From NCBI GenBank assembly GCA_963776725.1, contig CAVZOE010000021.1, positions 431,931-495,930 on the forward strand: 64,000 nt of DNA. Direction: 5' to 3'. A program made the translations under genes and the position numbers. Within the stretch, counting starts at the first letter, position 1; every line of letters starts with the position of its first letter. The stretch comes from an uncultured Candidatus Rokubacteria bacterium (GTDB taxonomy: Bacteria; Methylomirabilota; Methylomirabilia; Rokubacteriales; CSP1-6). The notes under the pieces were generated by a model. That model searched no databases. It had not been told where the DNA came from and worked only from the letters and a program-made list of their open reading frames with translations. Positions 16,956 through 51,976 of the stretch are shown one piece after another.

Positions 16956-17001
16956 TGAGCCGCTCACGGATCAGCCGTTCACTCACTGCCGAGAGTGCAA
17001 G

Positions 17002-17857: not shown

Positions 17858-17870
17858 CAGGCGTGCGGCC

Positions 17871-18894
17871 TCACCCTCCCCACATGTCGGGCAGCGTGAA
17901 GCCGCCGCGGAATGGATCGCCCGGATCGAAGCCGTGCTGGAAGACGCCGGTGATCCACGCCTGCCCCGCGATCGTCGGGACGATAGCCGATCGCCCCCCC
18001 ACCGTCACCGCGCGGGCGATGGCGGCCTCGAACCGCGAGCCGATGATCGACTCGTGCACGAACCCCTGCCCGGCCGCCAGCTGCCCGCGCGCGTGCAGCA
18101 CGGCCAGGCGGGCGGAGGTGCCGGTGCCGCAGGGACTGCGGTCGATGCGGCCGGGGGCGACGATCACCGCGTTGCGGCTCACGCTCCCCGGGCCCGGTGA
18201 ACGGCATGGCGAACTCGGTGAACGTCACCGTGTGGATGTCCGCGTTGTCCGGATGGCGCACGGGCAGCTGCCGCGCGGCGGCGGCGGTGATCCGGTTGCC
18301 GAGGACCACGAGGTCGCGCGCCTCCTTCGGCTGCACCGCGAAGCCGAGTGACGGCGCGTCGACGATCGCGAAGAACGCGCCGCCGTAGGCCACGTCGACC
18401 TGGATCGTGCCCAGGCCCTCGACCTCCAGCGTGGCGCCGAGATGCGTGGCGAAGCACGGCACGTTGGTGAACTGCACGCGCTCCACCTTGCCGTCGCGGC
18501 AGCGCGCCTCGACGGGCACCGGGCCCGCCGGCGTGTCCAGCGTCAGCGTCGTCACCGGCTCGCGCATCGGCAGCATGCCCGTCTCGAGCAGGACGGTCAC
18601 GGTGCAGATGGTGTTGGAGCCGGACATCGGCGGATAGTCGGTCGACTCCATGATGATCATGCCCACGTCGCAGTCGGGCCGGGTGGGCGGCGTCACGAGG
18701 TTCACGCAGAGCGAGGGCTTGCCCCGGGGCTCGTGCAGGAGCCAGCGCCGTAGCTCGTCACCCTGTGTCTCCAGATAGCGCTTCTTGTCGAACATGGTGG
18801 CACCGGGGGGCGGGAGCACCCCACCGACGATCACGTGGTTGTCCTCGCCGCCGACGTGGCAGCCGATCACCGTTACCGTGCGTTCCCACTTCAC
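17871..18894 (-). CDS. Proline racemase family protein (hydroxyproline epimerase / dehydratase-like), one frameshift near 18180
   Basis: MKWERTVTVIGCHVGGEDNHVIVGG.. is followed by ..SPCGTGTSARLAVLHARGQ.., the catalytic Cys/Thr motif region. Confidence 0.65.
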
Positions 18895-34829: not shown

Positions 34830-35265
34830 TCAGTCCCTCAACGTCATCAGGAAGGCCACCACGTCCTCGATCTGCTCAGCGCTCAGGACCGGCTTGCCGC
34901 GCCAGGCCGGCGCCACCCGCGTCGAGCCCCTCGGTTCGATGATACGCCGGCATGATCGTCGTCGGGTTGATCCGGCCGGAATCGACGATCCGCAGCCGCA
35001 GCTGGCCCTCCGACCAGCGCGGCGCCCGCGCCCGCGCAGATCGGGCGCGAGATTGCCCTGGAACCGCTCCTCCGGGAAACGGCCCGCTGTGGCAGAGCAG
35101 GCACAGCCCGACCTGGCGGTTGGTGACGATGGCCCGCGCCGCGACCGGGATCGCCCGGCGGCGCCGGTGAGCGACGTGCGGGATCGCGTCGCTGCGTCCA
35201 CTGCGGCCAGCACCCGACCAGCGCAGCCAGACGCGCCGACGCACGACGGCCGCCGCCAATCTCAC
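34830..35265 (-). CDS. soxX: SoxX, monoheme c-type cytochrome (2 frameshifts)
   Basis: Motifs are ..[23 protein letters not shown], ..[27 protein letters not shown].. and ..[18 protein letters not shown]. The GTG start overlaps the fccB stop (GTGA). Confidence 0.6.
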
Positions 35266-36554
35266 CCGAAGACCTCGCCGGTGATCGTGCGGAACCAGGC
35301 CTCGGCGTAGGACCGCCTCGGCGGCGCGCGAGGCGCGCGGCGCGTCGCGCGGGCTGACGCCGCCCGCGCCGGGCACGTCGGCGAGCTGTCCGTTCGACGG
35401 CGCGTAGACGCCGGCGACCGAGATGCCGTAGTCGGGCGCGACCAGGCTGTAGCAGGTGTTGATCAGCTTGGGCGTGGGCGGCGCCGCCGCCCGTGAGCAG
35501 CAGCGCGACCGCCGCCGCGCACGTCTTGGCCTGCGAGTTCGCGGCGAAGGCCGACTTCGGCATGGCGCCGGCGATCGCGGCGTCGCCGATGACGTGGATG
35601 CTGGGCTGCAGCTTCGACTCGAACGTCGACCGGATCGATCGGGCACCAGCCGGTGCGGTCGGCGACGCCCGGCGACCTCGGCGATGCGGCCGGCCTTCTG
35701 CGGCGGGATGACGTTGGCCACCTCCGCCTTGTGCCGGCCGAAGTCGGTGACGAGCGTCCGGGTCGCGGCGTCGACCGAGGTGACGTTGCCGCCCTTGGAC
35801 AGCGGCACCCACTCGAGCAGGCCCGGGTAGAGCTCGGCCCAGGCCGCCTGGAACAGCCGCTGCTTGGAGAACGTGTCCTTGGCGTCGAGCACGATCAGCT
35901 TGGACTGCGGCTTCTTCGTCTTCAGATAGTGCGCGATCAGGCTCGCGCGCTCGTAGGGCCCGGGCGGGCAGCGGAACGGATTCGCCGGCGCCGAGATCAC
36001 GACGAGCCCGCCGTCCTGCATGGCCTCGAGCTGGCGGCGCAGCAGCAGCGTCTGCTCGCCCGCCTTCCAGGCATGCGGCATCTGCGCGGCCGCCGCCTCG
36101 TCGTAGCCCGGCAGCGCGCCCCAGCGGATGTCGATGCCGGGCGCCAGCACCAGCCGGTCGTAGGGCAGGCGCGTGCCGTCCGCGAGCGTGACCGACCGCG
36201 CCTGCGCGTCGACGCCGGTCGCGAGCTGTGCGGGCGATCGCGATGCCGTCGGCGGCGACATGCTCGTAGGTGAATTGCTGCGCGCGCAGCTCGCGCAGGC
36301 CGGCGATCACCGCGTTGCTGAACGGGCAGGCGGTGAACGTCGGGCTCGGCTCGACCAGGGTCACGGCGATGCGCGGGTCCGCCGTGCCGGAGCGCGCGGG
36401 CGCAGCTCGCGCCGGCGAAGCCGCCGCCGACGACCACGACCCGCGGGGCGGCGCCCTGCGCGAGCGTCGGGACCGGGAAGCACGGCGGCCGAGGCCGTGG
36501 CCGCGACACCGAGCTTCGAGGAACCGCGCGCGGATCCGTGTTCGTCGTCGTCAC
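35262..36554 (-). CDS. fccB: Flavocytochrome c sulfide dehydrogenase flavoprotein subunit (FccB/SoxF), at least 3 frameshifts
   Basis: The FAD-binding N-terminus is ..[13 protein letters not shown]... Further motifs are ..[17 protein letters not shown].., ..[21 protein letters not shown].. and ..[13 protein letters not shown]. Confidence 0.65.
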
Positions 36555-36844
36555 TTCTGCGCGGCGTACCAGGCGGCGATCGCCTGGATCTCGTCGTCGG
36601 TGAAGCCCTTGGCGATCCGGTCCATGACGGTGCCGGCCGCTGCCCCGAGCGGAAGTCCTGCATGGCCGCGACGATCGCGGCCCGATCGCTGCCCGGCGAG
36701 CCGCGGCACCGGCGACGTCACCCGCGCCGACGCGGGATGACATCCCGAGCACGACGCGGCGCCGGCCGGCGGCTCCGCCGATGCCGACGACGGCCGCGGC
36801 GATCGAGAGCGAGCCCCGATCGCCGCGGCCACGACCCTGCGCAT
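36551..36844 (-). CDS. Small monoheme c-type cytochrome (FccA/SoxE-like partner of FccB), frameshifted
   Basis: A single CSGCH motif is present. The C-terminus ..[25 protein letters not shown] is typical of class I cytochromes c. Confidence 0.5.
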   Translation of the reverse strand: MRRVVAAAIGARSRSPRPSSASAEPPAGAASCSGCHPASARVTSPVPRLAGQRSGRDRRGHAGLPLGAAAGTVMDRIAKGFTDDEIQAIAAWYAAQK

Positions 36845-36847
36845 CGC

Positions 36848-39046
36848 TTACACCATCGTGACGCCGTGGTTCTTCAGCGGGAACGTGCGGATGCGCTTGC
36901 CGGTCGCGGCGAAGATCGCGTTGAGCACCGCCGGCGCCGCCACGCAGATCGTCGGCTCGCCGACGCCGCCCCAGAATCCGCCCGACGGCATGACGATCGA
37001 CTCGACCTTCGGCATCTGCGCGATGCGCATCGAGTCGTAGGTGTCGAAGTTCGTCTGCTCGATGCGGCCGTCCTTGACCGTGCACTCCTCCATGAACAGC
37101 GCCGACAGGCCGTAGACGAACGAGCCGGCGATCTGGCGCTCGATCTGCGCCGGGTTGACCGCGTAGCCCGGATCGGTCGCGCAGACGATGCGATGCATCT
37201 TCGACCTTGTTGCCGTCCGCTGACCGAGATCTCGGCGCAGGCCGCGACGTAGCTGCCGAACGCCATCATCTGCGCGAGGCCGCGATAGACGCCCTGCGGC
37301 GCCGGCTTGCCCCAGCCCGCGCGGTCGGCCACCGCGTTCAGCACGGCGAGGTGCTTCGGGTGCTTGGTCATCAGCTTGCGGCGGAACTCGAGCGGATCCT
37401 GGCCGGCGGCATGCGCCAGCTCGTCCATGAAGCATTCGACGTAGATCGCGTTCTGGTTGATGTTCACGCCGCGCCAGAAGCCCGGCGGGACGTGCGGGTT
37501 GCGCATCGCGTGGTCGATCAGCAGGTTCGGGCACGCTGTAGCCGAACGCGAAGTCGCCGCTCGGGTCGAGACCCTGGAACGTGACCGGGTCGCGCCCGTC
37601 CTGGAGGCTTCTGCGGGCAGCACGGCGGCCAGGATCGACTGCCCCGAGATGCGCATGTGCAGGCCGGTGAGGTTGCCGCTCGCGTCGAGCGCGCCGATCA
37701 GCTTGCACTTGCGTGACCGGGTGATAGCGGCCGTGCGTCATGTCCTCTTCGCGCGTCCACAGCAGCTTCACCGGCGTGCCCGGGCATCTGCTTGGCGATC
37801 AGGACCGCCTGGCGTCACGTAGTCGTGGAACGCGCCGCGCCGGCCGAAGCCGCCGCCGAGGTTGATCTTGTAGACGTCGCACTTGTCGGCCGGCAGGCCG
37901 GACGCCGCCAGCACCGCCGCGAACGCCGCCTCGCCGTTCTGCGTCGGCACCCAGACCTCGCAGCGGTCGGCGCGTGTAGCGCGCCGTGGCGTTCATCGGC
38001 TCCATCGGCGCGTGGTTCTGGTACGGATAGGCGTAGACCGCCTCGACCTTCTTCGCCGCGCCGGCGATCGCGGCCTTCGCGTCGCCGTTCTTGTTGCCGA
38101 CGAAGGCCTGGTCGCGCGTCGAGGCCCGGCCTTCAGCATCTCGGCGATCGTCGCGCTCGAGACCTTGGCGTTCGGGCCCTCGTCCCACACGATCGGCAGC
38201 GCGTCGAGCGCGGTCTTGGCCTGCCACCAGGTGTCGGCGACGACCGCGACCGCGGTGTCGCCGACCTGCAGCGACGTTCTTGACGCCCGGCATGCCCTTG
38301 ACCTTGGCGGCGTCGAAGCTCTTCACCTTGCCGCCGAAGACCGGGCAGTCCTTGATCGCGGCGTTCAGCATGCCCGGCAGCTTGAGGTCGATGCCGTAGA
38401 CCTGCGTGCCGGTCACCTTGTCGACCGTGTCGAGGCGCTTGACCGGCTTGCCGATGATCTTCCAGTCCTTCGGGTCCTTGAGCGGCACGTCTTGTCGGCG
38501 GCGTCGAGCTTGGCGGCGGCCTCCGCGACCTTGCCGTAGGTGGTCGTGCGGCCCGAGGGCTTGTGCGTGATCACGCTGTTGGCGGCGCTGCACTCGGCGG
38601 CCGGCACCTTCCAGCCGTCGGCCGCGGCCTGGATCAGCATCATCGCGCGCGGTCGCGCCGCCCTGGCGCACGTACTCGTGCGACGTCGCGGATGCCGCGG
38701 CTGCCGCCGGTGGAGAAGTCGCCCCACACGCGCTTGCGCGCGACGCTCTGGCCGGGCGTCGGATATTCGGTCGTCACCTTCGACCAGTCGCACTCGAGCT
38801 CCTCGGCGCACCATCTGCGCGAGGCCGGTGAGCGTGCCCTGCCCCATCTCGGAGCGCGCGATGCGGATCACGACCGTGTCGTCCGGCCGGATCACGACCC
38901 AGGCGTTGATCTCGGGCGAGCCGTCCGCGGCGCGCACGACGGCTGGCGCCGAACGGGATGTTCAGGCCGAGGGCGAGCCCGCCGCCGAGCGGCGGCGGTG
39001 CCGACGATGAAGGAGCGGCGATTGATCTTCGGAGTCGTGCGATCAT
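36848..39046 (-). pseudogene. Molybdopterin-binding large subunit of a two-subunit molybdenum hydroxylase (IorB / aldehyde-oxidase / CoxL-like), TAT signal, many frameshifts
   Basis: GGGGGAGGAG RBS. The N-terminus reads ..KINRRSFIVGTAAA... Fragments on at least 5 frames include ..MRAADGSPEINAWVVIRPDDTVVIRIARSEMGQGTLTGLAQMV.. and ..GYAVNPAQIERQIAGSFVYGLSALFMEE.. Confidence 0.6.
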
Positions 39047-39057
39047 GGCTCCTCCCC

Positions 39058-39505
<448 letters not shown>

Positions 39506-39584
39506 TGGCGTTCCCCTCCCCGGGAGTCCGGTGGGAGAAATATCCAACAACGCGCTGCCGAAGGCAAGTTCGTGCTGGCGCGGG

Positions 39585-39785
39585 CTATTTCTTGATGTCG
39601 TTCACCGTGTTGTCGACCTTCCGGCCGGCCTTCTCGGCTGGGCCCTTGCCGATCAGCTTGTCCTGGCCGGTGACCTCGTCGACCTTCTCCCCGGCCTTCT
39701 GCATCGGGCCTCTCTCGCACCCCGTCAGACACAGACCAACGACCAGACTCGCCATCACCGCGGATGCCGCCATGCGCCTGTCCAT
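39585..39785 (-). CDS. Small lipoprotein (66 aa; lipobox LTGC), possible CsbD/YgdI-like stress lipoprotein
   Basis: GGGAGG RBS. The sequence is [23 protein letters not shown], followed by a K/E-rich tail. Confidence 0.5.
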
Positions 39786-40011
39786 GCTCTCGACCTCCCG
39801 GCTCCCGGCAGGGAGCGCGTGTAGTTTCGTTCGCTGGTTCCTGGTATACGCACGCCCCATGCCAGGCGGACCGCGCAGAACCGAGGAGCGACAGAACCGG
39901 GGCGCCCCGGGTTCCCCGGGGCGCGACGAGCGCCGGGGGGTTTGGGGGCCATGTCGGGGCCCCCATGTCAATAAACCAAAAAAGTCGTAGGATGCGGTCC
40001 GCGGAGGACCA

Positions 40012-40684
40012 ATGGACGGCGTCCACGATCTCGGCGGGATGCACGGCTTCGGCCCGGTGGAGCGCGAGGAGAACGAGCCGCCATTTCACGGGCGCTGGGA
40101 GGCCGTGGTCGTCGCCATCGAGGCGGCCATGCTCGCCGCGGGCTGCTACAACATCGACGAGTTCCGCCACGGGATCGAGCGCATGGACCCCGCGCACTAC
40201 CTCGGCTCGAGCTACTTCGAGCACTGGCTGGACGGTATCGCGCGCGTGCTCATGGAAAAGGGCGTCGTCGACGCCGCGGATCTCGACGCGCGGACCCGCC
40301 TCTTCCAGGAGCGGCCCGACGCCCCCCTCGGCGCGCCGCCCGCGGGGACGGGGCCGGCTGCCGGCGCCGGCCGGCGAGTCCTGACCTCCTTTCGCACGCC
40401 GGTGGCCCCGCCGCGGTTCGCCATCGGCTCGGCCGTGACGCACGCGCACCATGCACCCGGCCGGACACACCCGGCTGCCCCGCTATGCGCGGGGCAAGCG
40501 CGGCGTGATCGAGGCCCACCGCGGATTTCACGTCTTCCCTGACACCTCCGCGCACGGCCTCGGCGATCAACCGCAGCACGTCTACAGCGTGCGATTCGAG
40601 GCGCATGATCTCTGGGGGGAGGCCGCCGAGCCGAACCAGCGCATCTACATCGACCTCTGGGAGAGCTACCTGCTGGCCGCCTGA
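40012..40684 (+). CDS. nthB: Nitrile hydratase beta subunit, one frameshift near 40440
   Basis: [24 protein letters not shown].. continues to the C-terminal ..[19 protein letters not shown].. Confidence 0.7.
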
Positions 40685-40707
40685 CGGCAAAGCCGGGAGA
40701 TCAGCGC

Positions 40708-41308
40708 GTGGGCAAGAACCATCCGAACGTCGACGACTACGTCATCTCGCGCGTGCGAGCGCTCGAGTCGCTCCTGCTCGAGAAGGGCTTGCTGGCTCCC
40801 GACGCCGTCGACCGCGTCATCCGCCGGTACGAGGCCAGCACCGGGCCGATGCTGGGCGCGCGCGCGGTGGCGCGGGCGTGGCGGGACCCGGCCTACCGCC
40901 ATCGCCTGCTCAACGACCCGACGGCCGCGCTCGGCGACTTCGGCGTGACCTACGACCGTCTCGTCGTGGTGGAGAACACGCCGGCCCGTCACAACGTCGT
41001 CGTCTGCACGCTCTGCTCCTGCTACCCGTGGGACGTCATGGGCCTGCCGCCGACCTGGTACAAGATGCCCGCCTACCGCTCGCGCGCGGTGAGCGAGCCG
41101 CGCCAGGTGCTCGCCGAGTTCGGCTCGGTCGTGCCGCCCGAGCGCGAGATCCGCGTCTGGGACAGCTCCGCGGAGCTGCGCTACATGGTGCTGCCGATGG
41201 CGCCCGCCGGCGCTGCGCGGCTGGAGCGAGGACGCGCTCGCCGCGCACATCACGCGCGAGGCGCTGATCGGCGTGGCCGAGGTGCACTTGCCGGACGGAG
41301 CGCGCTGA
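40708..41308 (+). CDS. nthA: Nitrile hydratase alpha subunit, cobalt type (VCTLCSCY), one frameshift near 41215
   Basis: The metal-binding motif is ..[20 protein letters not shown]... Confidence 0.7.
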
Positions 41309-41313
41309 GCGCG

Positions 41314-42264
41314 ATGTACGAGCGGCGCCGCAATCTGGTGGCCCGGTCCGACGGCCGGATGGTCAACGTGGCGCGCTTTCGCGGCCAGCTCTTCGTGTGC
41401 GCCACCGGCTGCTGCTGCGGGCGCACCGGCGACGGGTTCGCGGCGGTGCCCACCGAGCTCTACCACGGCGAGTGGGAGCGGCGGCGGCTGCGCAACGTCG
41501 TGCATCTCACCATCGGCGGCTGCCTCGGCCCCTGCGCGCTGGCCAACGTCGTGCTCCTGCTCTTCGACGGCCAGGCGCAATGGTTTCACTCGATCGACTC
41601 CGAGACGCTGGTGCGGGCGCTCTACGATCACGTCGACGCCATGCTGGCGGCGGATGGCTGCCTGCCCGCGCCTGCTGCCCTGGCGCCGAACCACTTCACG
41701 GGATCGACATGGCAGCCGCGGCCGGACGGACAGCCGGTGGACGACTTCCGGCCGCGCCGCCCGGCGTCGAACGGAGTCGAGCGTCCATTCGAGGTGCTGG
41801 CGTCAGGCGACGCCTGCCACGGAGCCGAGACGCTGACCGCCGATGTGTGCCACCCGGCGTCCAGTGCGTGCGATCCGGCGCCCGCCGCGCCGCGCCGGGC
41901 GACGGCGCCGCTCGACGCCGAGGACGGGACCGCGGCGCGCCTTCATCGGCTGCTCACGAATCTCGGCGATGCGACGGTGCCGCGGCGCAACGGCGAGCTG
42001 GTCTTCGACGAGCCGTGGCAGGGTCGCGTCTTCGGGATGGCCGTCGCGCTCTCCGAGCAGGGCCTGCTGCCGTGGGAGGAGTTCCGCCAGGCGCTGATCG
42101 CCCAGATCGCCGCCGCCGAGGCGCGCGGCGGTGAGTTCCGCTACTACCACGCCTGGCTCGCCGCGTTCGAGCAGGTCCTGGCGGCGCGCGGCGCGGTGCG
42201 TCCGGAGGAGCTCGAGGAGACCACCTTCCAGTTCGAGTTCGGCGAGCGCGACGAGGTCTACTGA
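41314..42264 (+). CDS. Fusion protein: N-terminal thioredoxin-like [2Fe-2S] ferredoxin domain plus C-terminal nitrile hydratase accessory (beta-homologue/activator) domain
   Basis: The N-terminal part reads ..[33 protein letters not shown]... The C-terminal part reads ..[50 protein letters not shown]... The 316-aa product is intact. Confidence 0.6.
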
Positions 42265-42283
42265 CGCTCGACCGAAGCCGAGG

Positions 42284-42544
42284 CTAGGCGATGAATTGCC
42301 GGCCGGCGTCGGACAGGGTCGCCGTTCGGGTGTTGACGTCGTAGTCGACCAGCCCCTCGTCCACGAAGCTCTCCATCATCTTCGAGAAGCCCTGGTGCGC
42401 GATCAGGAACCGCTCCGAGCTGTGATCGTGCATCTCGGCGAGCGTGGCGGCGGCGCCCTCCCGCTTCGACAGCCAGGTCAGCATCCCTTTGCGCGCCCGC
42501 TCGAAGTACGCCTTCTGCCGCTCCTCGGACACTGGCTCCGCCAT
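42284..42544 (-). CDS. Small hypothetical protein (86 aa)
   Basis: A clean ORF with balanced composition, lying between convergent neighbours. I recognise no domain. Confidence 0.35.
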   Translation of the reverse strand: MAEPVSEERQKAYFERARKGMLTWLSKREGAAATLAEMHDHSSERFLIAHQGFSKMMESFVDEGLVDYDVNTRTATLSDAGRQFIA

Positions 42545-42635
42545 GCTCGCTCCTCCTGATGCGTGGATCGGATCTCGAGCGCACAGCCTACCCGATCCGC
42601 GGGCCCGCGCGCAGGCGGGCCCGGCGCAAAGCCGC

Positions 42636-43084
42636 CTAACGGCCGAGCACGCGCTCGATCTCGTCGAGATGCTCGTCCCGGTGCACGGCGCGGATCAGGT
42701 TGAGGGGCCCGCCGGCCCGGACATTCTGCGTCACCATCTCGTCCGACAGCGTCTCCACCAGGCGGTCGACGACCCCCGCCGCGCGAACCGTCAGGTCCGC
42801 GGCCAGTCGCGGTGACAACGCCAGGAACAGTGGCTTCGACGCGTCGTTGATCCAGTCGACGCTGGCGGCGTCTTCCACCGCCGGGACGGTCCCCGTCGAC
42901 CGCCATCGCTCGAAGAGGACCTCGACCCGGTGGTCCCAGAACGCCACGTGGGCGAGCACCGAGGCCACGGTCCATCCAGCCGGCATCGTCTGCGCCAGCT
43001 GACCGTCGGTGCAGCGGGCCACCAGCGTCTCCAGACGCTGTCGCGAAGTATTGTTCCGCGCGACGTAGCTTCGATCGACAGCCA
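42636..43084 (-). CDS. DinB/YfiT-like (DinB_2) metal-dependent four-helix-bundle protein
   Basis: GAGGAGGGG RBS. The motif is ..WTVASVLAHVAFWDHR.. Confidence 0.5.
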
Positions 43085-43209
43085 TGTGAATCCCCCTCCT
43101 CGTCGGGATACCTCGGTCAGCAGTGTCGCACGCCCAGGCTTCACGAGCAGGACATCGATACCCGCACGCACCCCGCCAGGCCGGCGCGGGATGTGGCATG
43201 CTGTTCGTC

Positions 43210-43950
43210 ATGCTCCCTCGTCGATCTCTCCGGGTCCTCCACACCGCCGACGTCCATCTCGATGGCGATGTCGGTGGCAGCGCCGAGCAGCAGCTGGCCT
43301 ATCGTGAGCGGGGTCGCGCCGTCCTGCGGCGCATCGTCGACCGGGCCCTCGCGGACGAGGTCGATCTGGTGCTCATCGCCGGTGACCTCTTCGACCACAA
43401 TCGCGTGCCCGACACCACCCTGGCCTTCGTGCAGGCCCAGCTCGATCGGCTGCGCCAGCCGGTGGTGATCCTGCCGGGCAATCACGACGCGCTCTACACG
43501 CGCTCCATCCACGACCGGCACGACTTCTCGGCCGGCGCGCCCCACGTCCACGTGATTCGCCGGCTCGATGGGCAGACGCTCGACTTCCCCGAGCTTCAAG
43601 TCAGCGTGTGGGGCCGCGCGATGGAAGAGCACGTGCCGACCTTCCAGCCGCTCGCCAACCTCCCATCACGCGATGACCGCCGCTGGTCCATCGCCATGGG
43701 TCACGGCTTCTTCTACCCGGAACGCCAGCGGCCGGACCGGTCCTCGCCCATCTTCGCCGACGAGGTTCGCGACAGCGGCTGGGACTACCTGGCACTCGGC
43801 CATCACCACGTCCGCACCGACGTGAGCCAGGGACGCGTGGCCGCCCACTATCCGGGGGCGCCGATGGAGGGCAGCTCGCCCGGCACGATCCTGCGCGTCG
43901 ACTTCTCGACCGACGACGGCGTTCGCGTCAGCTCGCGCGCTGTCGACTAG
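43210..43950 (+). CDS. Calcineurin-like metallophosphoesterase (SbcD/Mre11-type nuclease family)
   Basis: Motifs are RVLHTADVHLDG, LVLIAGDLFDH, ILPGNHD and LALGHHH. Confidence 0.65.
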   Translation: MLPRRSLRVLHTADVHLDGDVGGSAEQQLAYRERGRAVLRRIVDRALADEVDLVLIAGDLFDHNRVPDTTLAFVQAQLDRLRQPVVILPGNHDALYTRSIHDRHDFSAGAPHVHVIRRLDGQTLDFPELQVSVWGRAMEEHVPTFQPLANLPSRDDRRWSIAMGHGFFYPERQRPDRSSPIFADEVRDSGWDYLALGHHHVRTDVSQGRVAAHYPGAPMEGSSPGTILRVDFSTDDGVRVSSRAVD

Positions 43951-43962
43951 CCATCGCCTCGC

Positions 43963-44857
43963 TCAGCGCGCGCCGGCGGCGCGGGCCGCCGCCAGCGCCG
44001 TCGCCCGCGCGTGCAGCGCCGGCGTGCCGAGCCGCTCCGCCCAGCGGGCGAAGTCGTCGCGCGGCCCCGTCCAGCGCAGCGCATCGACGTCGACGCCGAT
44101 GGGCGCGTCCGGGCGCAAGGTGGCCAGCTCCCGGAACAGGCGCGCGCGCTCGGCGTGCTCGGTGAGCGCCGTCGCCAGTCGCAGCGCGCCCCGCACGGGC
44201 ACGTCCCACTTCATCGCGAGCGCGGGGATGTCCTCGAGATGTCGATAGCGGGCCAGCACCGTCGCCGCGGATTTCGCGCCCCAGCCCGGCAGCCCCGGAT
44301 AGCCGTCGGCGGTGTCGCCGACGAGCGCGAGCCAGTCGGGAATGGACTCGGGCAGGACCCCGTACTTCTGCTGCACGCCTGATGCGTTGCGGCGCTCGCC
44401 GGTGCGACGGTCGAGCTGCACGATCCGGTCACCCCGCACGCACTGCGCCAGGTCCTTGTCCGGCGTGCACACCACCACCTGCTCGACGCGCGCATCGGCC
44501 GCCGCCATGACCGCCGCCGCGGCCAGCGCATCGTCGGCCTCGAACTCGACCATGGGCCAGACCACCACGCCGAGCGCGCTCAGCGCTTCTTCGAGCGGCT
44601 GGAACTGGCCGTAGAGCAGCGGGTCGATGCCTTCGCCCGTCTTGTAGTCCGCCCAGAGCGCGTTGCGGAACGATTCGATGACGTGGTCGGTGGCCACGCC
44701 CAGATGCGTGGCGCCACCCTCCAGCATCCCGAGCACGGATCCCACCACGCCGCGCACCGCCCGCAGCTGCGGGCGGCGCCTGCCGGTCGAAGGCGGCGGC
44801 CGGCGAGAGGAAATAGCGGAACAGCTCGTACGTCCCGTCGACCAGATGGACAATCAC
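43963..44857 (-). CDS. 5'-3' exonuclease / flap endonuclease (PolI N-terminal-like, Xni/ExoIX family), one frameshift
   Basis: The N-terminus MIVHLVDGTYELFRYF.. is followed by ..VVWPMVEFEADDALAAAAV..VVVCTPDKDLAQCV.. and the H3TH region ..LVGDTADGYPGLPGWGAKSAATVLARY.. Confidence 0.6.
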
Positions 44858-44900
44858 GCCGACAACGATACGGTAGAGAGGACGGGAGGACGACGGGAAG

Positions 44901-45548
44901 ATGATCCCGCTACTGGACCACTGGGGCTACCTGGGGATCTTCCTCGCCGTCGTCCTGGGCAACGTGGGTCTGCCGGTTCCCGAGGAAACAGTCCTCGCCA
45001 TGGCCGGCTACGCGGCGTCCCGCGGGGTCCTGCATCTGCCCGTCATCCTGGTCATCGGCGTCCTCAGCGCGGTGGCGGGCGACAACATCGGCTACTGGCT
45101 CGGACACCGTTACGGCCGGCGGGCCATCGAACGGTTCGGGCACCTGGCCTTCATCCCTCCCCAGCGCATGCAGAAGATCACGTCGTTCATGACGCGCTAC
45201 GGGGCCTTCGCCGTCTTCGCCGCGCGCTTCGTCGTGGGTCTTCGCACCTTGGCCGGGCCGCTGGCCGGGGCGACCGGTATGCGCCGGCGGACCTTCCTCA
45301 TCGCCAACATCCTCGGCGCCCTCGTCTACGTCCCCTACGCCGTCGCCATCGGCTACGGAATCGGCTGGGGCTTCGGCGACTTCATCGAGCGCTTCTTCGC
45401 CGGGCGTCTCGAGCACATCATCCTCATCGTCGTGGGGCTCACGCTGCTGCTGGGCATCGTCCGCTTCCGCCGGGCCCGCCGCGCCGTCCTCGTGGCAGCG
45501 CCGACTGACTGGTCCGAGCCCAAACCGCCGGCCCAGGCTGCTTCGTGA
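44901..45548 (+). CDS. DedA/SNARE-associated family membrane protein
   Basis: Motifs are ..LGNVGLPVPEETVLAMAGY.. and ..RFVVGLRTLAGPLAGATGM.. Confidence 0.75.
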   Translation: MIPLLDHWGYLGIFLAVVLGNVGLPVPEETVLAMAGYAASRGVLHLPVILVIGVLSAVAGDNIGYWLGHRYGRRAIERFGHLAFIPPQRMQKITSFMTRYGAFAVFAARFVVGLRTLAGPLAGATGMRRRTFLIANILGALVYVPYAVAIGYGIGWGFGDFIERFFAGRLEHIILIVVGLTLLLGIVRFRRARRAVLVAAPTDWSEPKPPAQAAS

Positions 45549-45621
45549 GCGGCGCCGCCCCCAGCGCCAGGCCCCGCCTGGGTAGGGCGGCGCCGCTCAC
45601 GAAGAAGCCGAGAGACCCGGC

Positions 45622-48600
45622 TCACGGGGTCTGGAACGTCGCGGTCACCGTCTTGGCTGACGTCATCACCACCGTGCACGTGTTGTTCGCCCCCGGGGTG
45701 CAGCCGGCGAAGCTGGTCAGGCTCGAGCCGGCCGCGGGGGTCGCGGTGAGCGTCACCGTCGTGCCGGCGGGGTAAGGGGCAGAGCAGGTCGGGGTGCAGC
45801 TGATGGGGCCGGTGTCGCTCGTGATCGTGCCGCTACCGGCGCCAGCCTTCTTGATCGTGAGGGTGAAGCTCGCGAAGGTCGCCGTGACGGCGCGGGCCTG
45901 ACTCATGGTCACCGTGCACGTGTTGCCTTGTACGCTCGCGCAGCCCGTGAAGACGACCCCGAGGTTGGCGGCGCCCGGCGTCGCGGTCAGAGTCACGGAC
46001 TGGCCGGCGGCAAAGCTGGCCGAGCAGATCGAGGGACACGCGATGCCGGATGGCGCGCTCGCGACCGTGCCGTTGCCGGACCGCGTCACCGTGAGCGTGA
46101 ATTTCGAGAAGGTCGCCGTGACCGTCTTGGCCGCCGTCATCGTCACGTTGCAATCGACGCCACCGGCGCCGCTCGTGGAGGCGCAGCCCTTCCAGCCGCC
46201 GAACCCGGCATCGCTGTCAGGGACGGCGGTGACCGTCACCTGCGTGTTGGGCGGAAAGTCCTGGAAGCAGACCTGACCGCAGCTGAAGGCCGGGCCGGTC
46301 ACCGTTCCCGATCCGCCCCCCACGCTCGCCTTGGTCACCGTCAGCCGCCGGCTCGTGAACGTGGCGGTGACGGTCCTGGCCGCGCTCATCGTCACGGTGC
46401 AGACGTTGCCCTGCACGCTCGCACAGCCGGTCCACGACGTGAATCCCGAGGTCGAGGCGGCCGTGGCCGTGACCTGTACCACCGTGCCCGGCGCGAACTG
46501 ACTCGTGCAGCTCTGCAGGCAGTCGACCCCCGGAACATCGCTGGCGACGCTGCCGAAGCCCGTGATGTTGACCCGCAAGGCCACCGAGGTGAACGTGGCG
46601 GTCGCCGTCTTGGCGGTGTTCATGGTGACCGTGCAGGTGGCCCCGTTCACCCCGCTCACCGAGGTGCAGCCCGTCCACTTCGTGAACACCGAGCCCTGCG
46701 CCGGCGTCGCCGTCACCACGGCCTGGGCGCTGGGCGGAAAGCCTGCCTGGCAGGACAGGCCGCAATCGATCCCGTTGCCGACACCCGTCAGCGTGCCGTT
46801 CGCACCGCCCACGCGCGACAGCGTGACCCTCAGGAGGTTGCTGGAGAAGGTGGCGGTCACCGTGCGATTGGACGACGCCGTCACCGCACAGAGATTGCCG
46901 CTCGGCGAGGTGCATCCGCTCCAGGCCGTGAAGGCCGAGGTGGGATCGGTGTTGTTGGCCTGCAGGTGCACCACCGTCCCGGTCGGGAACTTTTGCGTGC
47001 AGGTCGTCCCGCAATCGATCGTGGCGCCCGGATCGGTTCCGACCACGGTGCCGGTGCCGGCGCCGTTCCTGGCCACCGTGATGGTCACGCTGTTGAAGGT
47101 GGCCGTCACCGTCCGCGCCGCGGTCGTCATCGTCACGGTGCACGTGGGGCCAACGGCGGACGTGCAGCCGACCCAGCTGAGGAAGTTCGAGCCCGCGTCC
47201 GGCGCCGCGGTCAGGGTGACCACGGTGTCCTTGGCGTTGTTGCTGAAGCACGTCGTGCCGCAGTTGATGTTGACGCTCGTGCCATTCGCGGGGTTGGCCA
47301 CGCTCGTCACCGTGCCGGTCCCGGTCCCCTTCTTCACGACCGTCAGGCGCGCCGCGCTGAAGTTGGCGGTCACCGTGCGGGCCGTGTTCATCGTGGCACT
47401 GCACGAGGTCCCGGCCGTGGACGAGCAGCCGGCCCAGCTGGTGAAGCTCGAGCCGGGATCGGGTATGGCGGTGAGCGCGATGGTGGTGCCCGCCGCGTTG
47501 GACGATTTGCAGATCGAGCCGCAGTTGATGGGCGCGCTGGTGGCGCCGCCGCCGGGTGCGCTCCCGGTGACCGTGCCGGCGCCCGTGCCCGTCTTCACCA
47601 CGGTCAGGGGAAACGAGGTGAAGGTGGCGGTGATGGTCCTGGCGCTGCTCATGATCACCTGGCATGTGCTCTGGCCGGCGCCCGAGGTGGCGCCACAGCC
47701 GGTCCACTGGGCGAAGGACGAGCCCGTGAACGCCGTCGCGGTGATGGTCACCGAGCTGCCGATGGCGAACGCCTGGGAGCAATCGAGCCCGCACGACAGG
47801 CCGACCGGCGAGCTCACCGCGATGCCGGATCCCGTGCCGTTGACCACCACGGTGAGCTTGGCCCCCGTGAAGTTCGCCGTCACCGTCTTCGACGCCGACA
47901 GGGTGACCACGCACGGCCCGGTGGCGTTGGTGCAGGCGCCCGTCCAGCCGGCGAACGTCAGGCCGGGATCCGGGGTGGCCGTCAGCGTCACGATCGTGCC
48001 GAGGGGATAGACCTGCTTGCACTCGTTCGGGAACGTCGGACACGAGATCCCCTCCGGCACGCTGGTGACCGTGCCGCTGCCGCCGCCGGTGAGGTTCACC
48101 GTGAGGGTCGTCATCACGCCGGTGCCCAGCTCACGCGCGAAGACCTGGGGCACCGAGTCGCCGTCGCCGATCCACGCCAGGATGGGCGTGAAGGATGGAG
48201 TCGGGCCGACGGCGAGGGCCGGCGCGATGGCCTGCACGTCGGGCCCGTTGACGCCGGTCGTCGTGGCCGCGCCTGCGGTGACGTCGACGAAGCCGGTCGC
48301 CCCGTTGAAGCGCTTGATGTACACCGCGGCCGAGCCGGTGGTGCCGATGGTCTGCCACGCCACGAACGGACGATTCTGCTGGCCGAAGACCACGACCGGC
48401 AATTCGTTGCGGCCGCTGGTCGGGCTGATCACCGTCGAGGTGGAGTTGTTCGTCCCCATCAGGGTCCACATCGCCGTGGCGATGCTGAAGGTCCGCACGT
48501 CCTGATTGAACTGGCGCAGCAGGACCCGCGTCTGGTTGGGATCCGTCGAGTTGTCACTCCAGGCCACCACCGGCTTGTTGTCGGTGCCGATGGCGATCGA

Positions 48601-49578
48601 CGGCGTGGCGGGCGCCACCGCACTGCCGGGCGGCGCGGAGGCATTGGCGTTGGCGCTGATGCCGCCGGCCTGGCCGAGGCCCGGTCCGATGGGTTGCGTG
48701 GGGATCTCCGGCCCCAGGGCGAGCCACCCGGCGCCGTTCCAGCGGGTCGCGTAGACGTCGGTGTTGGTGCCGATGTAGAACGTGGCCGGAGGCGACGGCT
48801 GGTCGCTGCCGGTGGTGTAGACGAAGGCCACGATCGGGAATCCGTCCGAGTCGACGGTGATCGAGGGCATGATGGCCGAGTGACACACGGCCTGTGAGCT
48901 GTTCGGTATGTCGAAGCTCACGGCATTGCTGGCGCCGCCGCCGGTCGTATTCGAGCCCAGGTAGCTCCACGCCGCCCCGTTCCACTGCACGACGAAGATC
49001 TGGTCACCGGCCAGCCCGATGGCGCCAGTGCTGAGGCAGTCGGCGCCGCCGCTGGGCGGTGCGTCGAGGGCAACGATCGGGTTGCCGTGCAGGTCGATGG
49101 CCAGGTCGAACGACGCGGGATTTACCGCCCCCGTCAGTCCGCTCCCCGCATTCGAGCCGGCCAGCCCCACCCACGAGCTGCCCGTCCACTGCGACAGGAA
49201 CACGGCGGTGGGACCAAGCCAGGCCACGTTGATCGTGCCGTCGGTCGAGATCTTGACCCGCGGCGTCACGCCCTGGCCGGGCGGGGTGCCGAGCTGCTGC
49301 CAGACCCCGTCGACGAGCTGCTTGACGACGATGTCGCTGTTCTGGGCATCGACATAGGCCACCACGGGGTTGCCGTCGGGATCGACGGCCACCGCCACGT
49401 TGCGCTCGGTCGTGCGCACGCCGGCGCCACTGCGGCTCAGGCCATCGTGAGTCCCCGAGCCGTCCAGCTCGATCCAGGAGGTTGCCGTGACCGAGGAGGC
49501 CTGCGCCGGCCACGGGGTGGCCAGACCCGCGATGAGGAGCAACAGGCAGGCTGCGCCGTTGACGAGAAGTCGGGGCAT
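45622..49578 (-). CDS. Giant secreted repeat protein (1318 aa): signal peptide, a ~450-aa W/G-rich N-terminal domain (possible beta-propeller), and about 11 tandem ~75-aa InlB-B-like repeats each with two Cys pairs
   Basis: Signal MPRLLVNGAACLLLLIAGLATPWPAQA. The repeat consensus is LTV.K.G.G.GTVTS.P.GI.CG..C...F..GT.VTLTA.P..GS.F..W.GC.S..G..C.VTM...RTVTATF. The ORF is intact. Confidence 0.8.
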   Translation of the reverse strand: MPRLLVNGAACLLLLIAGLATPWPAQASSVTATSWIELDGSGTHDGLSRSGAGVRTTERNVAVAVDPDGNPVVAYVDAQNSDIVVKQLVDGVWQQLGTPPGQGVTPRVKISTDGTINVAWLGPTAVFLSQWTGSSWVGLAGSNAGSGLTGAVNPASFDLAIDLHGNPIVALDAPPSGGADCLSTGAIGLAGDQIFVVQWNGAAWSYLGSNTTGGGASNAVSFDIPNSSQAVCHSAIMPSITVDSDGFPIVAFVYTTGSDQPSPPATFYIGTNTDVYATRWNGAGWLALGPEIPTQPIGPGLGQAGGISANANASAPPGSAVAPATPSIAIGTDNKPVVAWSDNSTDPNQTRVLLRQFNQDVRTFSIATAMWTLMGTNNSTSTVISPTSGRNELPVVVFGQQNRPFVAWQTIGTTGSAAVYIKRFNGATGFVDVTAGAATTTGVNGPDVQAIAPALAVGPTPSFTPILAWIGDGDSVPQVFARELGTGVMTTLTVNLTGGGSGTVTSVPEGISCPTFPNECKQVYPLGTIVTLTATPDPGLTFAGWTGACTNATGPCVVTLSASKTVTANFTGAKLTVVVNGTGSGIAVSSPVGLSCGLDCSQAFAIGSSVTITATAFTGSSFAQWTGCGATSGAGQSTCQVIMSSARTITATFTSFPLTVVKTGTGAGTVTGSAPGGGATSAPINCGSICKSSNAAGTTIALTAIPDPGSSFTSWAGCSSTAGTSCSATMNTARTVTANFSAARLTVVKKGTGTGTVTSVANPANGTSVNINCGTTCFSNNAKDTVVTLTAAPDAGSNFLSWVGCTSAVGPTCTVTMTTAARTVTATFNSVTITVARNGAGTGTVVGTDPGATIDCGTTCTQKFPTGTVVHLQANNTDPTSAFTAWSGCTSPSGNLCAVTASSNRTVTATFSSNLLRVTLSRVGGANGTLTGVGNGIDCGLSCQAGFPPSAQAVVTATPAQGSVFTKWTGCTSVSGVNGATCTVTMNTAKTATATFTSVALRVNITGFGSVASDVPGVDCLQSCTSQFAPGTVVQVTATAASTSGFTSWTGCASVQGNVCTVTMSAARTVTATFTSRRLTVTKASVGGGSGTVTGPAFSCGQVCFQDFPPNTQVTVTAVPDSDAGFGGWKGCASTSGAGGVDCNVTMTAAKTVTATFSKFTLTVTRSGNGTVASAPSGIACPSICSASFAAGQSVTLTATPGAANLGVVFTGCASVQGNTCTVTMSQARAVTATFASFTLTIKKAGAGSGTITSDTGPISCTPTCSAPYPAGTTVTLTATPAAGSSLTSFAGCTPGANNTCTVVMTSAKTVTATFQTP
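45625..48140 (-). repeat. Intragenic tandem array of about 11 divergent ~225-bp repeat units encoding the InlB-B-like domains
   Basis: Periodic recurrence of motifs such as gtcaccgtgcaggtg / accgtcacggccaccttc and of the encoded ..TVTATF.. ends. The units diverge mainly at synonymous positions. Confidence 0.6.
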
Positions 49579-49747: not shown

Positions 49748-49770
49748 CCCCGCTGCAGTTGGGAGGTGGG

Positions 49771-50868
49771 GTGACGACAGCGCGACGCGACTTCCTGGCG
49801 AGGATTGGCGGCGCGGTGGCGGCCGCCGCGACCACTGCTCTCGTCGAGGCTCCCCACGTGATCGCGCAGCCGAAGATCCAGTGGCGGATGTCCACCGCCT
49901 GGACGCCGACACTGGATATGTTGCAGGGCGCGGCCTTGCGGCTCGCCAAGGTCGTCGAGGAGATGAGCGGGGGCCGGTTCCGGATCGAGGTCTTTCCGGG
50001 AGGGCAGATCATGCCCCCCTTCGCCTGCTTCGACGCGGCCTCGCAGGGCACGATCGAGGCGTTCATGGCGACCCCGAACTACTGGGCGACAAAGGATCCG
50101 GGATTGGTGTGGTTCGCGACCATTCCGTTCGGCATGGACCCGGCGGGCATGACAGCCTGGCTCTACCAGGGTGACGCACTCAAGCTCTGGGAGGAGGCGT
50201 ACGCCGCCTTCAACCTCGTGCCCCGCCCCGGGCCCGCGCTCGCGCCCCAGATGGCGGGATGGTTCCGGAAGAGGATCAACGCCATCGGGGACTACAAGGG
50301 ACTCAAGATGCGCATCGCCGGCCTGGGGGGCAACGTCATCGCCCGGGCCGGCGGCACCACGGTCCTCACCCCGGCCCCCGCCATCTACGGAGCACTCGAG
50401 CAAGGCGTGATCGACGCCGGAGAATGGGTCGGTCCCCACGACGACATGAACCTGGGCCTGCACAAGACCGCGCGCTACTACTACTACCCGGGATGGCACG
50501 AGCCCGGGACGATGAGCGAGTTCAGCTTCAACCGCAAGGCGTACGAGGCCCTGCCGAGCGAGCTCCGGCAGACGCTGGACCATGCCGCCGCCGCCGTCCA
50601 GATCTACGGCCTGACCGACTTCCACGCGAAGAACGCCGCCGCGCTGGCGCGTCTGAGGACGGAGTTCAAGGGCAAGGTCGACGTGCTCCAGCTTCCGGTG
50701 CCGGTGCTGCGCGATCTCCGGAAGCTGGCCAGCGACGTCGTGCGGGAGGAATCCGAGAAGACGCCGATGGCCCGGAAGGTCCACGCGTCCTTCACGAAGT
50801 TCCAGCTTCTGGTGGGCCCCTGGGACCACATTGCGGAAAGCGCCTACCATCAGCTCGTGGCGGTATGA
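49771..50868 (+). CDS. TRAP transporter solute-binding protein (DctP/COG4663-type), TAT signal, paralog 1
   Basis: GTG start after GGAGGTG. The signal is RRDFLARIGGAVAAAATTA. Conserved motifs include ..QWRMSTAWTP.. and ..GGRFRIEVFPGGQIMPPFACFDAASQGTIEAF.. Confidence 0.75.
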   Translation: MTTARRDFLARIGGAVAAAATTALVEAPHVIAQPKIQWRMSTAWTPTLDMLQGAALRLAKVVEEMSGGRFRIEVFPGGQIMPPFACFDAASQGTIEAFMATPNYWATKDPGLVWFATIPFGMDPAGMTAWLYQGDALKLWEEAYAAFNLVPRPGPALAPQMAGWFRKRINAIGDYKGLKMRIAGLGGNVIARAGGTTVLTPAPAIYGALEQGVIDAGEWVGPHDDMNLGLHKTARYYYYPGWHEPGTMSEFSFNRKAYEALPSELRQTLDHAAAAVQIYGLTDFHAKNAAALARLRTEFKGKVDVLQLPVPVLRDLRKLASDVVREESEKTPMARKVHASFTKFQLLVGPWDHIAESAYHQLVAV

Positions 50869-50878
50869 GGAGACCAGG

Positions 50879-51973
50879 GTGAGGACTGATCGACGCCGGT
50901 TCCTCGCGAAGGTGGGTGGCGCGATGACCGCCGCCGCGGCCGTCATGGCCGACGCTCCCCGGGCGATCGCTCAGCCGAAGGTCCAGTGGCGAATGTCCAC
51001 GGCCTTCACCTCGACGAACGATCTGATGCAGGGCGCGGCCCAGCGGCTGGCGAAGGTCGTGGAGGAGATGAGCGGCGGACGGTTTCGCATCGAGGTCTTC
51101 CCCGGCGGACAGATCATGCCGCTGTTCGCCTGCTTCGACGCCGCCTCGCAGGGCACCATCGAGGCGTTCATGGGGACGGATCAATACTGGAGAGACAAGG
51201 AGCCCGCGCTCGAATGGTTCGCCACCATCCCGTTCGGCATGAATCCCGACGGCATGGCCGCCTGGTATCACCAGGGCGACGGGCTCAAGCTCTGGGAGGA
51301 GGCGTACGCCGCATTCAACCTGGTGCCGCGTCCCGCCATGGGCAACGCCCCGCAGATGGCGGGTTGGTTCAGGAAGAAGATCAACACCATCGGTGACTTC
51401 AAGGGCCTCAAGATGCGCATCCCGAATCTCGGCGGCAAGGTCCTCGCCCGCGCGGGTGCCACCACGGTGCTCACCCCCGGCGTGGAGATCTACGCCGCGC
51501 TCGAACGGGGTGTCATCGATGCCTCCGAGTGGATCGGACCGCACGACGACATGAAGCTGGGTCTCCACAAGACGGCTCGCTACTACTACTATCCAGGGTG
51601 GCACGAGCCCGGCACCACCCTGGGGTTCGGGTTCAACAAGAAGGCGTACGCGGCGCTTCCGCTCGATCTGCAACGCACGCTCGACCATGCCACGGCGGCC
51701 GTGCACACCTACGGCAGCGCGGAGTTTCACGCGAAGAACGCGATCGCGCTGGAGCAGCTCAAGACGGAGTTCAAGGGGAAGGTCGAGGTGCTCCAGCTTC
51801 CGCTTCCGGTGCTGCGCGATCTCAAGAAGCTGTCCGCCGAGGTCGTGCGGGAAGAATCCGAGAAAACGCCGATGGCCCGCAAGGTCCACGCGTCCTTCAC
51901 GAAGTTCCAGGCGCTCGTGGGCCCCTGGGACCACGTCGCCGAGGGCGCGTATCATCAATGGGTCGCGCTGTAA
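50879..51973 (+). CDS. TRAP transporter solute-binding protein, paralog 2
   Basis: GTG start after GAGGAG. The signal is RRRFLAKVGGAMTAAAAVMA. It shares the conserved blocks with paralogs 1 and 3. Confidence 0.75.
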   Translation: MRTDRRRFLAKVGGAMTAAAAVMADAPRAIAQPKVQWRMSTAFTSTNDLMQGAAQRLAKVVEEMSGGRFRIEVFPGGQIMPLFACFDAASQGTIEAFMGTDQYWRDKEPALEWFATIPFGMNPDGMAAWYHQGDGLKLWEEAYAAFNLVPRPAMGNAPQMAGWFRKKINTIGDFKGLKMRIPNLGGKVLARAGATTVLTPGVEIYAALERGVIDASEWIGPHDDMKLGLHKTARYYYYPGWHEPGTTLGFGFNKKAYAALPLDLQRTLDHATAAVHTYGSAEFHAKNAIALEQLKTEFKGKVEVLQLPLPVLRDLKKLSAEVVREESEKTPMARKVHASFTKFQALVGPWDHVAEGAYHQWVAL

Positions 51974-51976
51974 GGG

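Follow-up and report, generated by a model that had tools for sequence, protein, structure and literature searches.

The nitrile hydratase operon and its third gene

The DNA analysed here, called the window, is a stretch of 64,000 nucleotides from an uncultured Candidatus Rokubacteria bacterium (assembly GCA_963776725.1, contig CAVZOE010000021.1, positions 431,931 to 495,930). Positions 40012-42264 of the window hold three genes, all on the + strand and arranged in the order beta-alpha-activator: nthB and nthA, which encode the two structural subunits of a nitrile hydratase, and a third gene, hereafter gene 3, whose ATG lies 5 nt past the TGA stop of nthA. The gene 3 product is a cobalt-type nitrile hydratase activator joined to a thioredoxin-like ferredoxin domain, and the fusion is genuine. 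The features of the operon are the following.

40012..40684, + strand: nthB, nitrile hydratase beta subunit, with Pfam NHase_beta_N in its N-terminal part and NHase_beta_C in its C-terminal part, in two different frames
40708..41308, + strand: nthA, cobalt-type nitrile hydratase alpha subunit, with a GTG start, a TGA stop at 41306-41308 and a match to Pfam NHase_alpha
41002..41025, + strand: VCTLCSCY, the metal-binding signature of the alpha subunit, read directly from the sequence
41314..42264, stop codon included, + strand: gene 3, an intact ATG-initiated open reading frame (ORF) for a 316-residue maturation protein made of a ferredoxin-like domain, a linker and a beta-homologue accessory domain
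41314..41718, + strand: thioredoxin-like ferredoxin domain, residues 1-135
41398..41418, + strand: C29-x3-C33-C34-C35 cluster (CATGCCC), four invariant cysteines, of which C29 and C34 fall on ligand positions of HydB and FeSI
41521..41535, + strand: C70-LGP-C74 (GGCLGPC), second pair of putative [2Fe-2S] ligands, invariant in the family and aligned with GCLGPC of FeSI (5abr)
41761..41922, + strand: hypervariable, predicted-disordered linker, residues 150-203, with a predicted local distance difference test score (pLDDT) below 50 in the full-length model
41965..42213, + strand: beta-subunit-homologue accessory domain of the self-subunit-swapping chaperone type, residues 218-300, recognised by TIGR03889, Pfam, sequence and Foldseek
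42214..42261, + strand: conserved acidic/aromatic C-terminal tail, predicted unstructured (pLDDT about 40), with invariant residues

Both structural genes are frameshifted in the window. In the ORF list nthB appears as a 176-residue ORF followed by a 77-residue ORF in another frame and, because nthA is frameshifted, positions 40708-42264 appear as a single ORF of 518 residues. Translation in three frames shows that the reading frame is shifted for the final 80 residues of beta and the final ~30 of alpha, and Pfam and NCBIfam recognise the pieces as the N- and C-terminal parts of nitrile hydratase beta and of nitrile hydratase alpha. Removal of one base per site restores both full-length subunits: a 223-residue beta subunit (one base removed near 40441), which scores 255.6 bits on TIGR03888 against a cutoff of 152.2, and a 199-residue alpha subunit (extra G at 41226 removed), which scores 253.5 bits on TIGR01323 against a cutoff of 249.85. 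On TIGR03887, the model of the thiocyanate hydrolase gamma subunit, the corrected alpha subunit reaches 171 bits, below the cutoff of 291. A thiocyanate-hydrolase-like beta made of two subunits was considered for the split nthB and rejected, as the split is a one-base frameshift without counterpart in relatives and the alpha subunit fails TIGR03887.

The Thr and Tyr of VCTLCSCY are taken by us, as established knowledge of the family motif VC(T/S)LCSC(Y/T), to mark the cobalt type. Judged by the curated models that both subunits satisfy after base removal, by this motif and by gene order, the operon is that of a cobalt-type nitrile hydratase. The first-pass annotation of this DNA had described a beta-before-alpha cobalt-type operon with nthB at 40012, nthA at 40708 and VCTLCSCY in the alpha subunit, a description that direct reading and the curated models bear out; it was silent on the frameshifts of nthB and nthA. 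It was also right that no amidase adjoins the operon, since none lies within about 8 kb on either side. Among the 30 ORFs scanned in the window, neither an adjacent amidase nor a cobalt transporter turned up, Rfam matches no riboswitch or other RNA element in the whole window, and no paralogue of the ferredoxin-like domain and no CobN was found elsewhere in it. The sole amidase-related gene seen in the window is an ORF with an allophanate hydrolase C-terminal domain at 4807-5853 on the minus strand, ~34 kb from the operon; in that ORF the N-terminal part with the amidase signature was not recovered.

Domain architecture of the gene 3 product

The reading frame of gene 3 contains no hidden stop codon or frameshift, and an identical 316-residue protein is encoded by L070, an independent short-read contig (ENA) that is ~98.5% identical to window positions 41051-44422. 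The C-terminal half is the accessory protein: residues 231-300 match TIGR03889, the equivalog model of nitrile hydratase accessory proteins, with 75.1 bits against a cutoff of 46, and residues 218-306 match Pfam NHase_beta_N (E 1.2e-12). This domain corresponds to residues ~15-100 of the beta chains of Co-type nitrile hydratases, by sequence (~15-97) and by fold (Foldseek). The TIGR03889 cutoff and the position directly downstream of the structural genes place the gene 3 product among the accessory proteins, but with 316 residues it is not the small single-domain protein that is usual among them.

In the full-length structure model two folded domains are connected by a disordered linker. The product aligns end to end with 108 full-length homologues, among which the linker differs in both sequence and length. 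The C-terminal tail, by contrast with its low pLDDT, holds residues F307, E308, G310, E311 and R312, which are invariant in 109 sequences, and it is probably a peptide that binds a partner. Pfam and NCBIfam show neither a regulatory output domain in the product nor a match to the cobW or GTPase families; the sole likeness to the latter is the CCC triplet, which stands on another fold.

Cysteines and fold of the ferredoxin-like domain

Six cysteines of the N-terminal domain, C29, C33, C34, C35, C70 and C74, are invariant in the 109 full-length homologues, and so are H51, H64, W54, R57 and R60. In the alignment C29 and C34 take the places of the first two [2Fe-2S] ligands of thioredoxin-like ferredoxins, while C33 and C35 are extra invariant cysteines that give rise to the CCC triplet. 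A profile built from 82 homologues finds the Azotobacter FeSI ferredoxin 5abr (E 3e-5) with FVC/FIC and GGCLGPC/TGCLGPC aligned, and it also finds the N-terminal domains of HydB-type subunits, where C29 and C34 fall on the C-x4-C pair. The ligand spacing reads C29-x4-C34-x35-C70-x3-C74, presumably the same as among Cys83/88/124/128, which bind the N1a cluster in NuoE/Nqo2. In NCBIfam, residues 1-135 show a weak likeness to 2Fe-2S ferredoxins of the thioredoxin-like type (E 5.6e-4).

The domain thus has both the thioredoxin-like ferredoxin fold and the four canonical cysteines. By these comparisons it is a distant relative of the thioredoxin-like ferredoxins, not an equivalog, and C29, C34, C70 and C74 most likely hold a [2Fe-2S] cluster. 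The first-pass annotation had seen in gene 3 an intact ORF of 316 residues with an accessory protein in the C-terminal half and a Cys-rich, thioredoxin-fold, ferredoxin-like module at the N terminus, and each of these descriptions agrees with what was found, the last of them through the fold and the cysteines aligned with FeSI and HydB. A domain search of the whole protein, which it had proposed, recognises the accessory domain and leaves the N-terminal domain unmatched in Pfam and weakly matched in NCBIfam.

Frameshifts and quality of the assembly

L001 is a JGI metagenome contig that is syntenic with window positions 38082-48861 at ~92% nucleotide identity, and it encodes an intact 223-residue beta subunit, an intact 199-residue alpha subunit and a 295-residue fusion protein. 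Relative to L001, nthB carries a one-base insertion near 40441, the placement of which is ambiguous within 40437-40445, and the extra G at 41226 in nthA is absent from L001 and from L070. At least nine further one-base insertions are found at 38110-38981, in the neighbouring molybdenum-subunit gene, and almost none downstream of 42265. Gene 3 shows no frame-breaking difference from L001; the differences in length are all in frame and all in the linker. On this comparison the nthB and nthA frameshifts are private to this assembly, and clustered assembly errors are their most likely cause, recent pseudogenisation being less likely.

The molybdenum-subunit gene (aldehyde oxidase/xanthine dehydrogenase type, about 36848-39010, minus strand) is itself broken by these insertions, and the sulfide dehydrogenase-like gene at 34876-36364, minus strand, switches frame too. 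The zone dense in single-base insertions, which covers 34876-39010 together with 40441 and 41226, looks like locally poor assembly rather than biology. A frame plot of GC content at third codon positions (GC3), made for mapping the frameshifts, was too noisy for strand calls and served as a hint only. At 15400-18100 of the window the GC3 frame signal switches every 100-200 nt; this part could be error-rich or non-coding, and Rfam finds no RNA gene in it.

Distribution and annotation of the fusion

When 5.8 billion proteins were searched by word index, the gene 3 product gave 1,004 matches, among which the 120 best-matching 90%-identity clusters were examined. These best 120 clusters are all full-length fusions of 272-328 residues, with 62-82% identity and a query coverage of 86-100%, mostly 100%. 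A scan with one genome per species gave 57 loci, every one in a metagenome-assembled genome (MAG). Most of them belong to Rokubacteria/Methylomirabilota and many to Chloroflexota (Dehalococcoidia, Thermoflexus, Limnocylindria), and there are single bins classed as Verrucomicrobiia, Binatia, Dormibacterota and others. Both domains stand in one frame in 50 of the 57 loci; five loci are cut by contig ends and two hold a stand-alone domain. In every one of the 50 two-domain loci for which upstream sequence is available, nthB and nthA lie immediately ahead of the fusion, which makes its functional link to nitrile hydratase a strong one. An amidase lies nearby in 14 of the related loci, while none adjoins the operon in the window.

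In 19 of the 57 related loci (e.g. L060:2981-3628) the gene immediately ahead of nthB encodes a soluble DUF7676 protein (~215 residues). This gene is absent from the window; DUF7676 may be a further component of this type of operon.

Homologues of the fusion bear the database names “nitrile hydratase accessory protein”, “cobaltochelatase CobN” (JGI), and “cobalt chelatase” and “(2Fe-2S) ferredoxin domain-containing protein” (NCBI). Activators of about 280 residues (P0002, P0010, P0015 and many others) are mislabelled “cobaltochelatase CobN” by JGI, and NCBI calls one “cobalt chelatase”; these labels evidently arise because the N-terminal domain is common to proteins in which it is fused to CobN. 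Full-text literature searches found no description of the activator fusion or of the CobN fusion. The activator fusion is public and machine-annotated, neither rare nor unseen, and its N-terminal domain stands outside the curated models (no Pfam model, no NCBIfam model at cutoff). The first-pass annotation had tied the novelty of the fusion to its not being already widespread and annotated. Widespread and machine-named it is, in the best 120 clusters and in 50 genomes, but the N-terminal domain has no model at cutoff and no describing paper that the searches could find.

Other partners of the ferredoxin-like domain

Residues 1-135 were used for an exhaustive HMMER search of 1.84 billion representatives at 50% identity. 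The domain family so delimited is small: 406 proteins reach E 1e-3 or better, 207 reach 1e-10 and 56 reach 1e-30. Among the best 150 of the 406 there are 16 CobN fusions, six proteins of the order ferredoxin-accessory, three of the order accessory-ferredoxin and 124 with the domain alone, many of which are fragments. In P0264 (1,484 residues) and P0268 (1,449 residues) the domain is N-terminal to a complete CobN/Mg-chelatase domain, and both keep the C-x3-CCC-G and GCLGPC motifs. P0268 is encoded directly after cobW in a cobalamin cluster (CbiD, methyltransferases, CbiG, CbiJ), and one ferredoxin-CobN protein comes from a Chloroflexota MAG (MBI3361818.1).

The reverse-order forms, which also have the cysteine motif, are encoded in nitrile hydratase operons too: P0246 is the third gene behind nthB-nthA, and P0279 is the third gene behind nthA-nthB. 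Since both orders occur, at least two independent fusions must have taken place. From these arrangements, the ferredoxin and accessory modules are concluded to have been joined more than once, in both orders and always within nitrile hydratase operons. The reverse-order fusions, together with those to the N terminus of CobN by cobW, are the main new result of the analysis. P0248 (408 residues, L071:291-1517), which lies behind nthA, consists of an accessory domain, a ferredoxin-like domain and ~150 further residues that are weakly similar to the CobN segment following the ferredoxin-like domain in P0264 (E 0.007), which hints that the ferredoxin-like domain and the N-terminal segment of CobN moved as one unit.

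Stand-alone copies of the domain, with 137-167 residues and 70-80% identity, are found in Rokubacteria (L067:5001-5504, L066:5001-5474 and L003:3564-3977). Their genes either stand in translational coupling between those of luciferase-like monooxygenases and of an MR_MLE protein (enolase superfamily), or follow an unknown 116-residue ORF. These paralogues in unrelated operons warn against assuming cobalt handling in every member of the family.

Comparison with known systems

The activators of known cobalt nitrile hydratases, NhlE and NhhG of Rhodococcus rhodochrous J1 and P14K of Pseudomonas putida, share with gene 3 the beta-homologue module and the position right after the alpha gene in a beta-alpha-activator operon. 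They are small stand-alone proteins of ~100-150 residues without cysteine clusters, whereas in gene 3 a ferredoxin-like domain of 135 residues, a linker that is long and disordered, and the conserved tail FQFEFGERD come in addition. The activator of Fe-type nitrile hydratases (Nha3 or epsilon), a COG0523 GTPase with a CxCC motif, resembles the gene 3 product in being accessory to the same enzyme family and in having a cysteine-rich, metal-related motif. Gene 3, however, encodes no GTPase domain, has a thioredoxin-like ferredoxin fold and belongs to another type of operon.

The thioredoxin-like [2Fe-2S] ferredoxins compared were FeSI of Azotobacter vinelandii (5ABR), Fd4 of Aquifex aeolicus (1F37/1M2A) and a protein of Rhodobacter capsulatus (9JN8), together with the N-terminal domains of NuoE/Nqo2/NDUFV2 and HoxF/HydB. 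The gene 3 domain has 10-23% identity with the ferredoxins and stays below curated cutoffs, and it differs from them by the two extra invariant cysteines of the CCC triplet, by an additional N-terminal beta-hairpin and by a conserved C-terminal extension. It is fused to cobalt-insertion proteins, whereas the known ferredoxins are fused to respiratory or hydrogenase modules.

CbiXL of Bacillus megaterium, which has a C-terminal [4Fe-4S] cluster and a His-rich extension, and other chelatases with iron-sulfur (Fe-S) centres are similar in the attachment of an Fe-S-type module to a protein that inserts cobalt. In gene 3 the type of cluster, the fold and the terminus are different, and the host is a maturation chaperone (or CobN in the related fusions), not a class II chelatase. 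A further parallel is given by the ferredoxin-CobN proteins P0264, P0268 and MBI3361818.1, the N-terminal domain of which belongs to the same family, with 50-60% identity and an identical C-x3-CCC-G ... GCLGPC pattern. Their partner is a CobN chelatase subunit of ~1,200 residues, encoded in a cobalamin cluster by cobW, and not a nitrile hydratase activator.

Proposed role of the ferredoxin-activator fusion

Gene 3 is proposed to encode a maturation factor of two modules that serves the cobalt nitrile hydratase specified just upstream and in which the N-terminal module performs a redox step tied to cobalt insertion; this reading is the most economical one, and we regard the case for it as about evenly balanced. 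By analogy with NhlE, NhhG and P14K, the C-terminal module would hold the apo alpha subunit during cobalt insertion and would then pass the loaded alpha subunit to the enzyme via subunit swapping; complex formation with alpha, cobalt insertion and subunit swapping are in this protein expectations from homology. The ferredoxin module would be tethered through a flexible linker of ~50-70 residues, with a [2Fe-2S] cluster on C29, C34, C70 and C74 and the invariant thiols C33 and C35 beside it. It would carry out an electron-transfer or thiol-redox step coupled to cobalt insertion, and so may keep or make the metal-site cysteines of alpha and the cobalt competent for insertion, the role that dithiothreitol (DTT) or glutathione has in vitro. 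The analysis shows the identities of the domains, their fold, the conserved cysteines, the linkage in operons and the repeated independent fusions; we infer that a cluster is bound, and likewise this electron or thiol role and the contacts with partners.

Cobalt insertion into the apo alpha-activator complex requires DTT, mercaptoethanol or glutathione in vitro (PMC3511329; PMC7329996), and a redox function has been proposed for the cobalt-type activator (PMC7193024); the molecular details of cofactor maturation are described as largely unknown (PMC11672702). As the N-terminal module is also fused to CobN, it has the look of an accessory that Rokubacteria and Chloroflexota add to cobalt-inserting proteins in general. 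CobN has no cysteine-oxidation step, so a function shared by the two kinds of fusion is more likely to be tied to cobalt insertion or cobalt redox than specifically to cysteine oxidation, as far as domain partners can indicate.

Several points weigh against the proposed redox role in maturation. The cobalt nitrile hydratases that are well studied use small activators without a ferredoxin domain for their maturation, so that the domain is not obligatory. The N-terminal domain has no Pfam match at E up to 1, 2Fe-2S_thioredx included, and NCBIfam ferredoxin models stay far below cutoff (NF041613, 20.1 bits against 195). The full-length model gives no confident contact or orientation between the two domains (predicted template modelling score 0.47). 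With nthA and nthB frameshifted in the window, the operon may be non-functional as assembled, and the operons of the stand-alone ferredoxin-like proteins contain no recognisable cobalt-handling gene.

A wider version of the proposal is put forward tentatively. The ferredoxin module could be a dedicated cobalt-handling domain common to two cobalt-insertion systems that are unrelated to each other, CobN and the activator of cobalt nitrile hydratase, in which the [2Fe-2S] cluster and the adjacent CCC thiols receive Co(II) or set its redox state at insertion. It would then be the missing intermediary between the cobalt supply (e.g. CobW) and the acceptor site, and also the physiological counterpart of the reductant used in vitro.

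Alternatively, the N-terminal domain could be a cobalt-binding metallochaperone and not an Fe-S protein, its CxxxCCC and CxxxC thiolates binding Co(II) and passing it to alpha, or to the chelatase in the CobN fusions. Fusion of the domain to cobalt-inserting proteins recurs, with CobN and the activator of Co-type nitrile hydratase as the two partners, and the invariant CCC triplet of the domain resembles the CxCC metal site of the COG0523 chaperones CobW and Fe-type activator (PMC7193024). Cobalt transfer has been reported for cobalt-type activators (PMC7193024), and a review deems an intermediary between CobW and CobNST possible (PMC11672702). All four canonical [2Fe-2S] ligand positions are retained, however, in the canonical spacing; the ferredoxin-CobN gene still has cobW as its neighbour, which puts a cobalt chaperone there already; and the stand-alone homologues stand in contexts without an obvious link to cobalt. 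On balance this explanation is a serious rival, though a rather unlikely one.

The first-pass annotation had suggested that the Fe-S domain could bear on how the active-site cysteines of alpha are oxidised during maturation. A role of the Fe-S domain specifically in driving the oxidation of two alpha cysteines to sulfinic and sulfenic acid, for instance by providing electrons for O2 activation, is unlikely. Thioredoxin-like ferredoxins are low-potential electron carriers, which speaks against it, as does the presence of the same domain on CobN, where no cysteine oxidation occurs. At least one alpha subunit is fully modified without any chaperone (PMC11672702), although the oxidation route of the alpha cysteines is regarded as unresolved in the same review, and Zhou 2009, as cited in PMC7193024, connects the activator with an oxidation of cysteines that follows cobalt insertion.

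A cluster that acts as a sensor or regulator and gates maturation by oxygen, redox state or iron/cobalt status is considered distinctly improbable. CbiXL, some ferrochelatases and BchH carry Fe-S centres that are dispensable for catalysis and whose role is unknown (PMC7689651), and the domain family occurs in varied contexts; but the protein lacks a regulatory output domain, and sensing does not account for a domain that is tied to the chaperone in particular, whichever of the two comes first. That the fusion is an assembly artefact, in which a single-base error merged two adjacent genes, has practically no chance of being true: many one-base insertions relative to a close relative do lie between about 38.1 and 41.3 kb of the window, but the identical protein of L070 and the full-length fusions in the best 120 clusters and the 50 loci with both domains in one frame dismiss it.

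For cobalt entry, Co(III) formation and the oxidised cysteine ligands of nitrile hydratase, a redox role of the activator has so far only been presumed, and a natural activator with a covalently tethered Fe-S-type domain makes the matter directly accessible to experiment, by deletion of the domain, by exchange of cysteines and by spectroscopy. The occurrence of a rare domain also on CobN, by cobW, suggests a common, unrecognised step of cobalt delivery, which bears on vitamin B12 biosynthesis and on the engineering of industrial nitrile hydratases. The analysis also corrects an annotation error, by which activators of about 280 residues are named as cobaltochelatase subunits in metagenome databases.

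Neighbouring genes in the window

An 86-residue ORF at 42284-42544 on the minus strand is convergent with gene 3, the two stop codons being 19 nt apart; neither Pfam nor NCBIfam has a family that it matches, and its position is kept in L001, L002 and L070. A gene of the DinB_2 / MDMPI_N family (42636-43244, minus strand) is present in L070 and absent from L001, where 537 bp are missing, and is a strain-level insertion or deletion right beside the operon.

The ORF at 45622-49578 on the minus strand encodes a 1,318-residue protein with a probable signal peptide and many repeats of ~85 residues rich in Thr, Gly and Cys; its Pfam assignment to Flg_new_2 is taken from the L001 orthologue. Three tandem paralogous genes for DctP-type (TRAP) solute-binding proteins occupy 49759-53071 on the + strand and are followed by a gene for an ABC substrate-binding protein and then by one for a Cache-HAMP-GAF histidine kinase.

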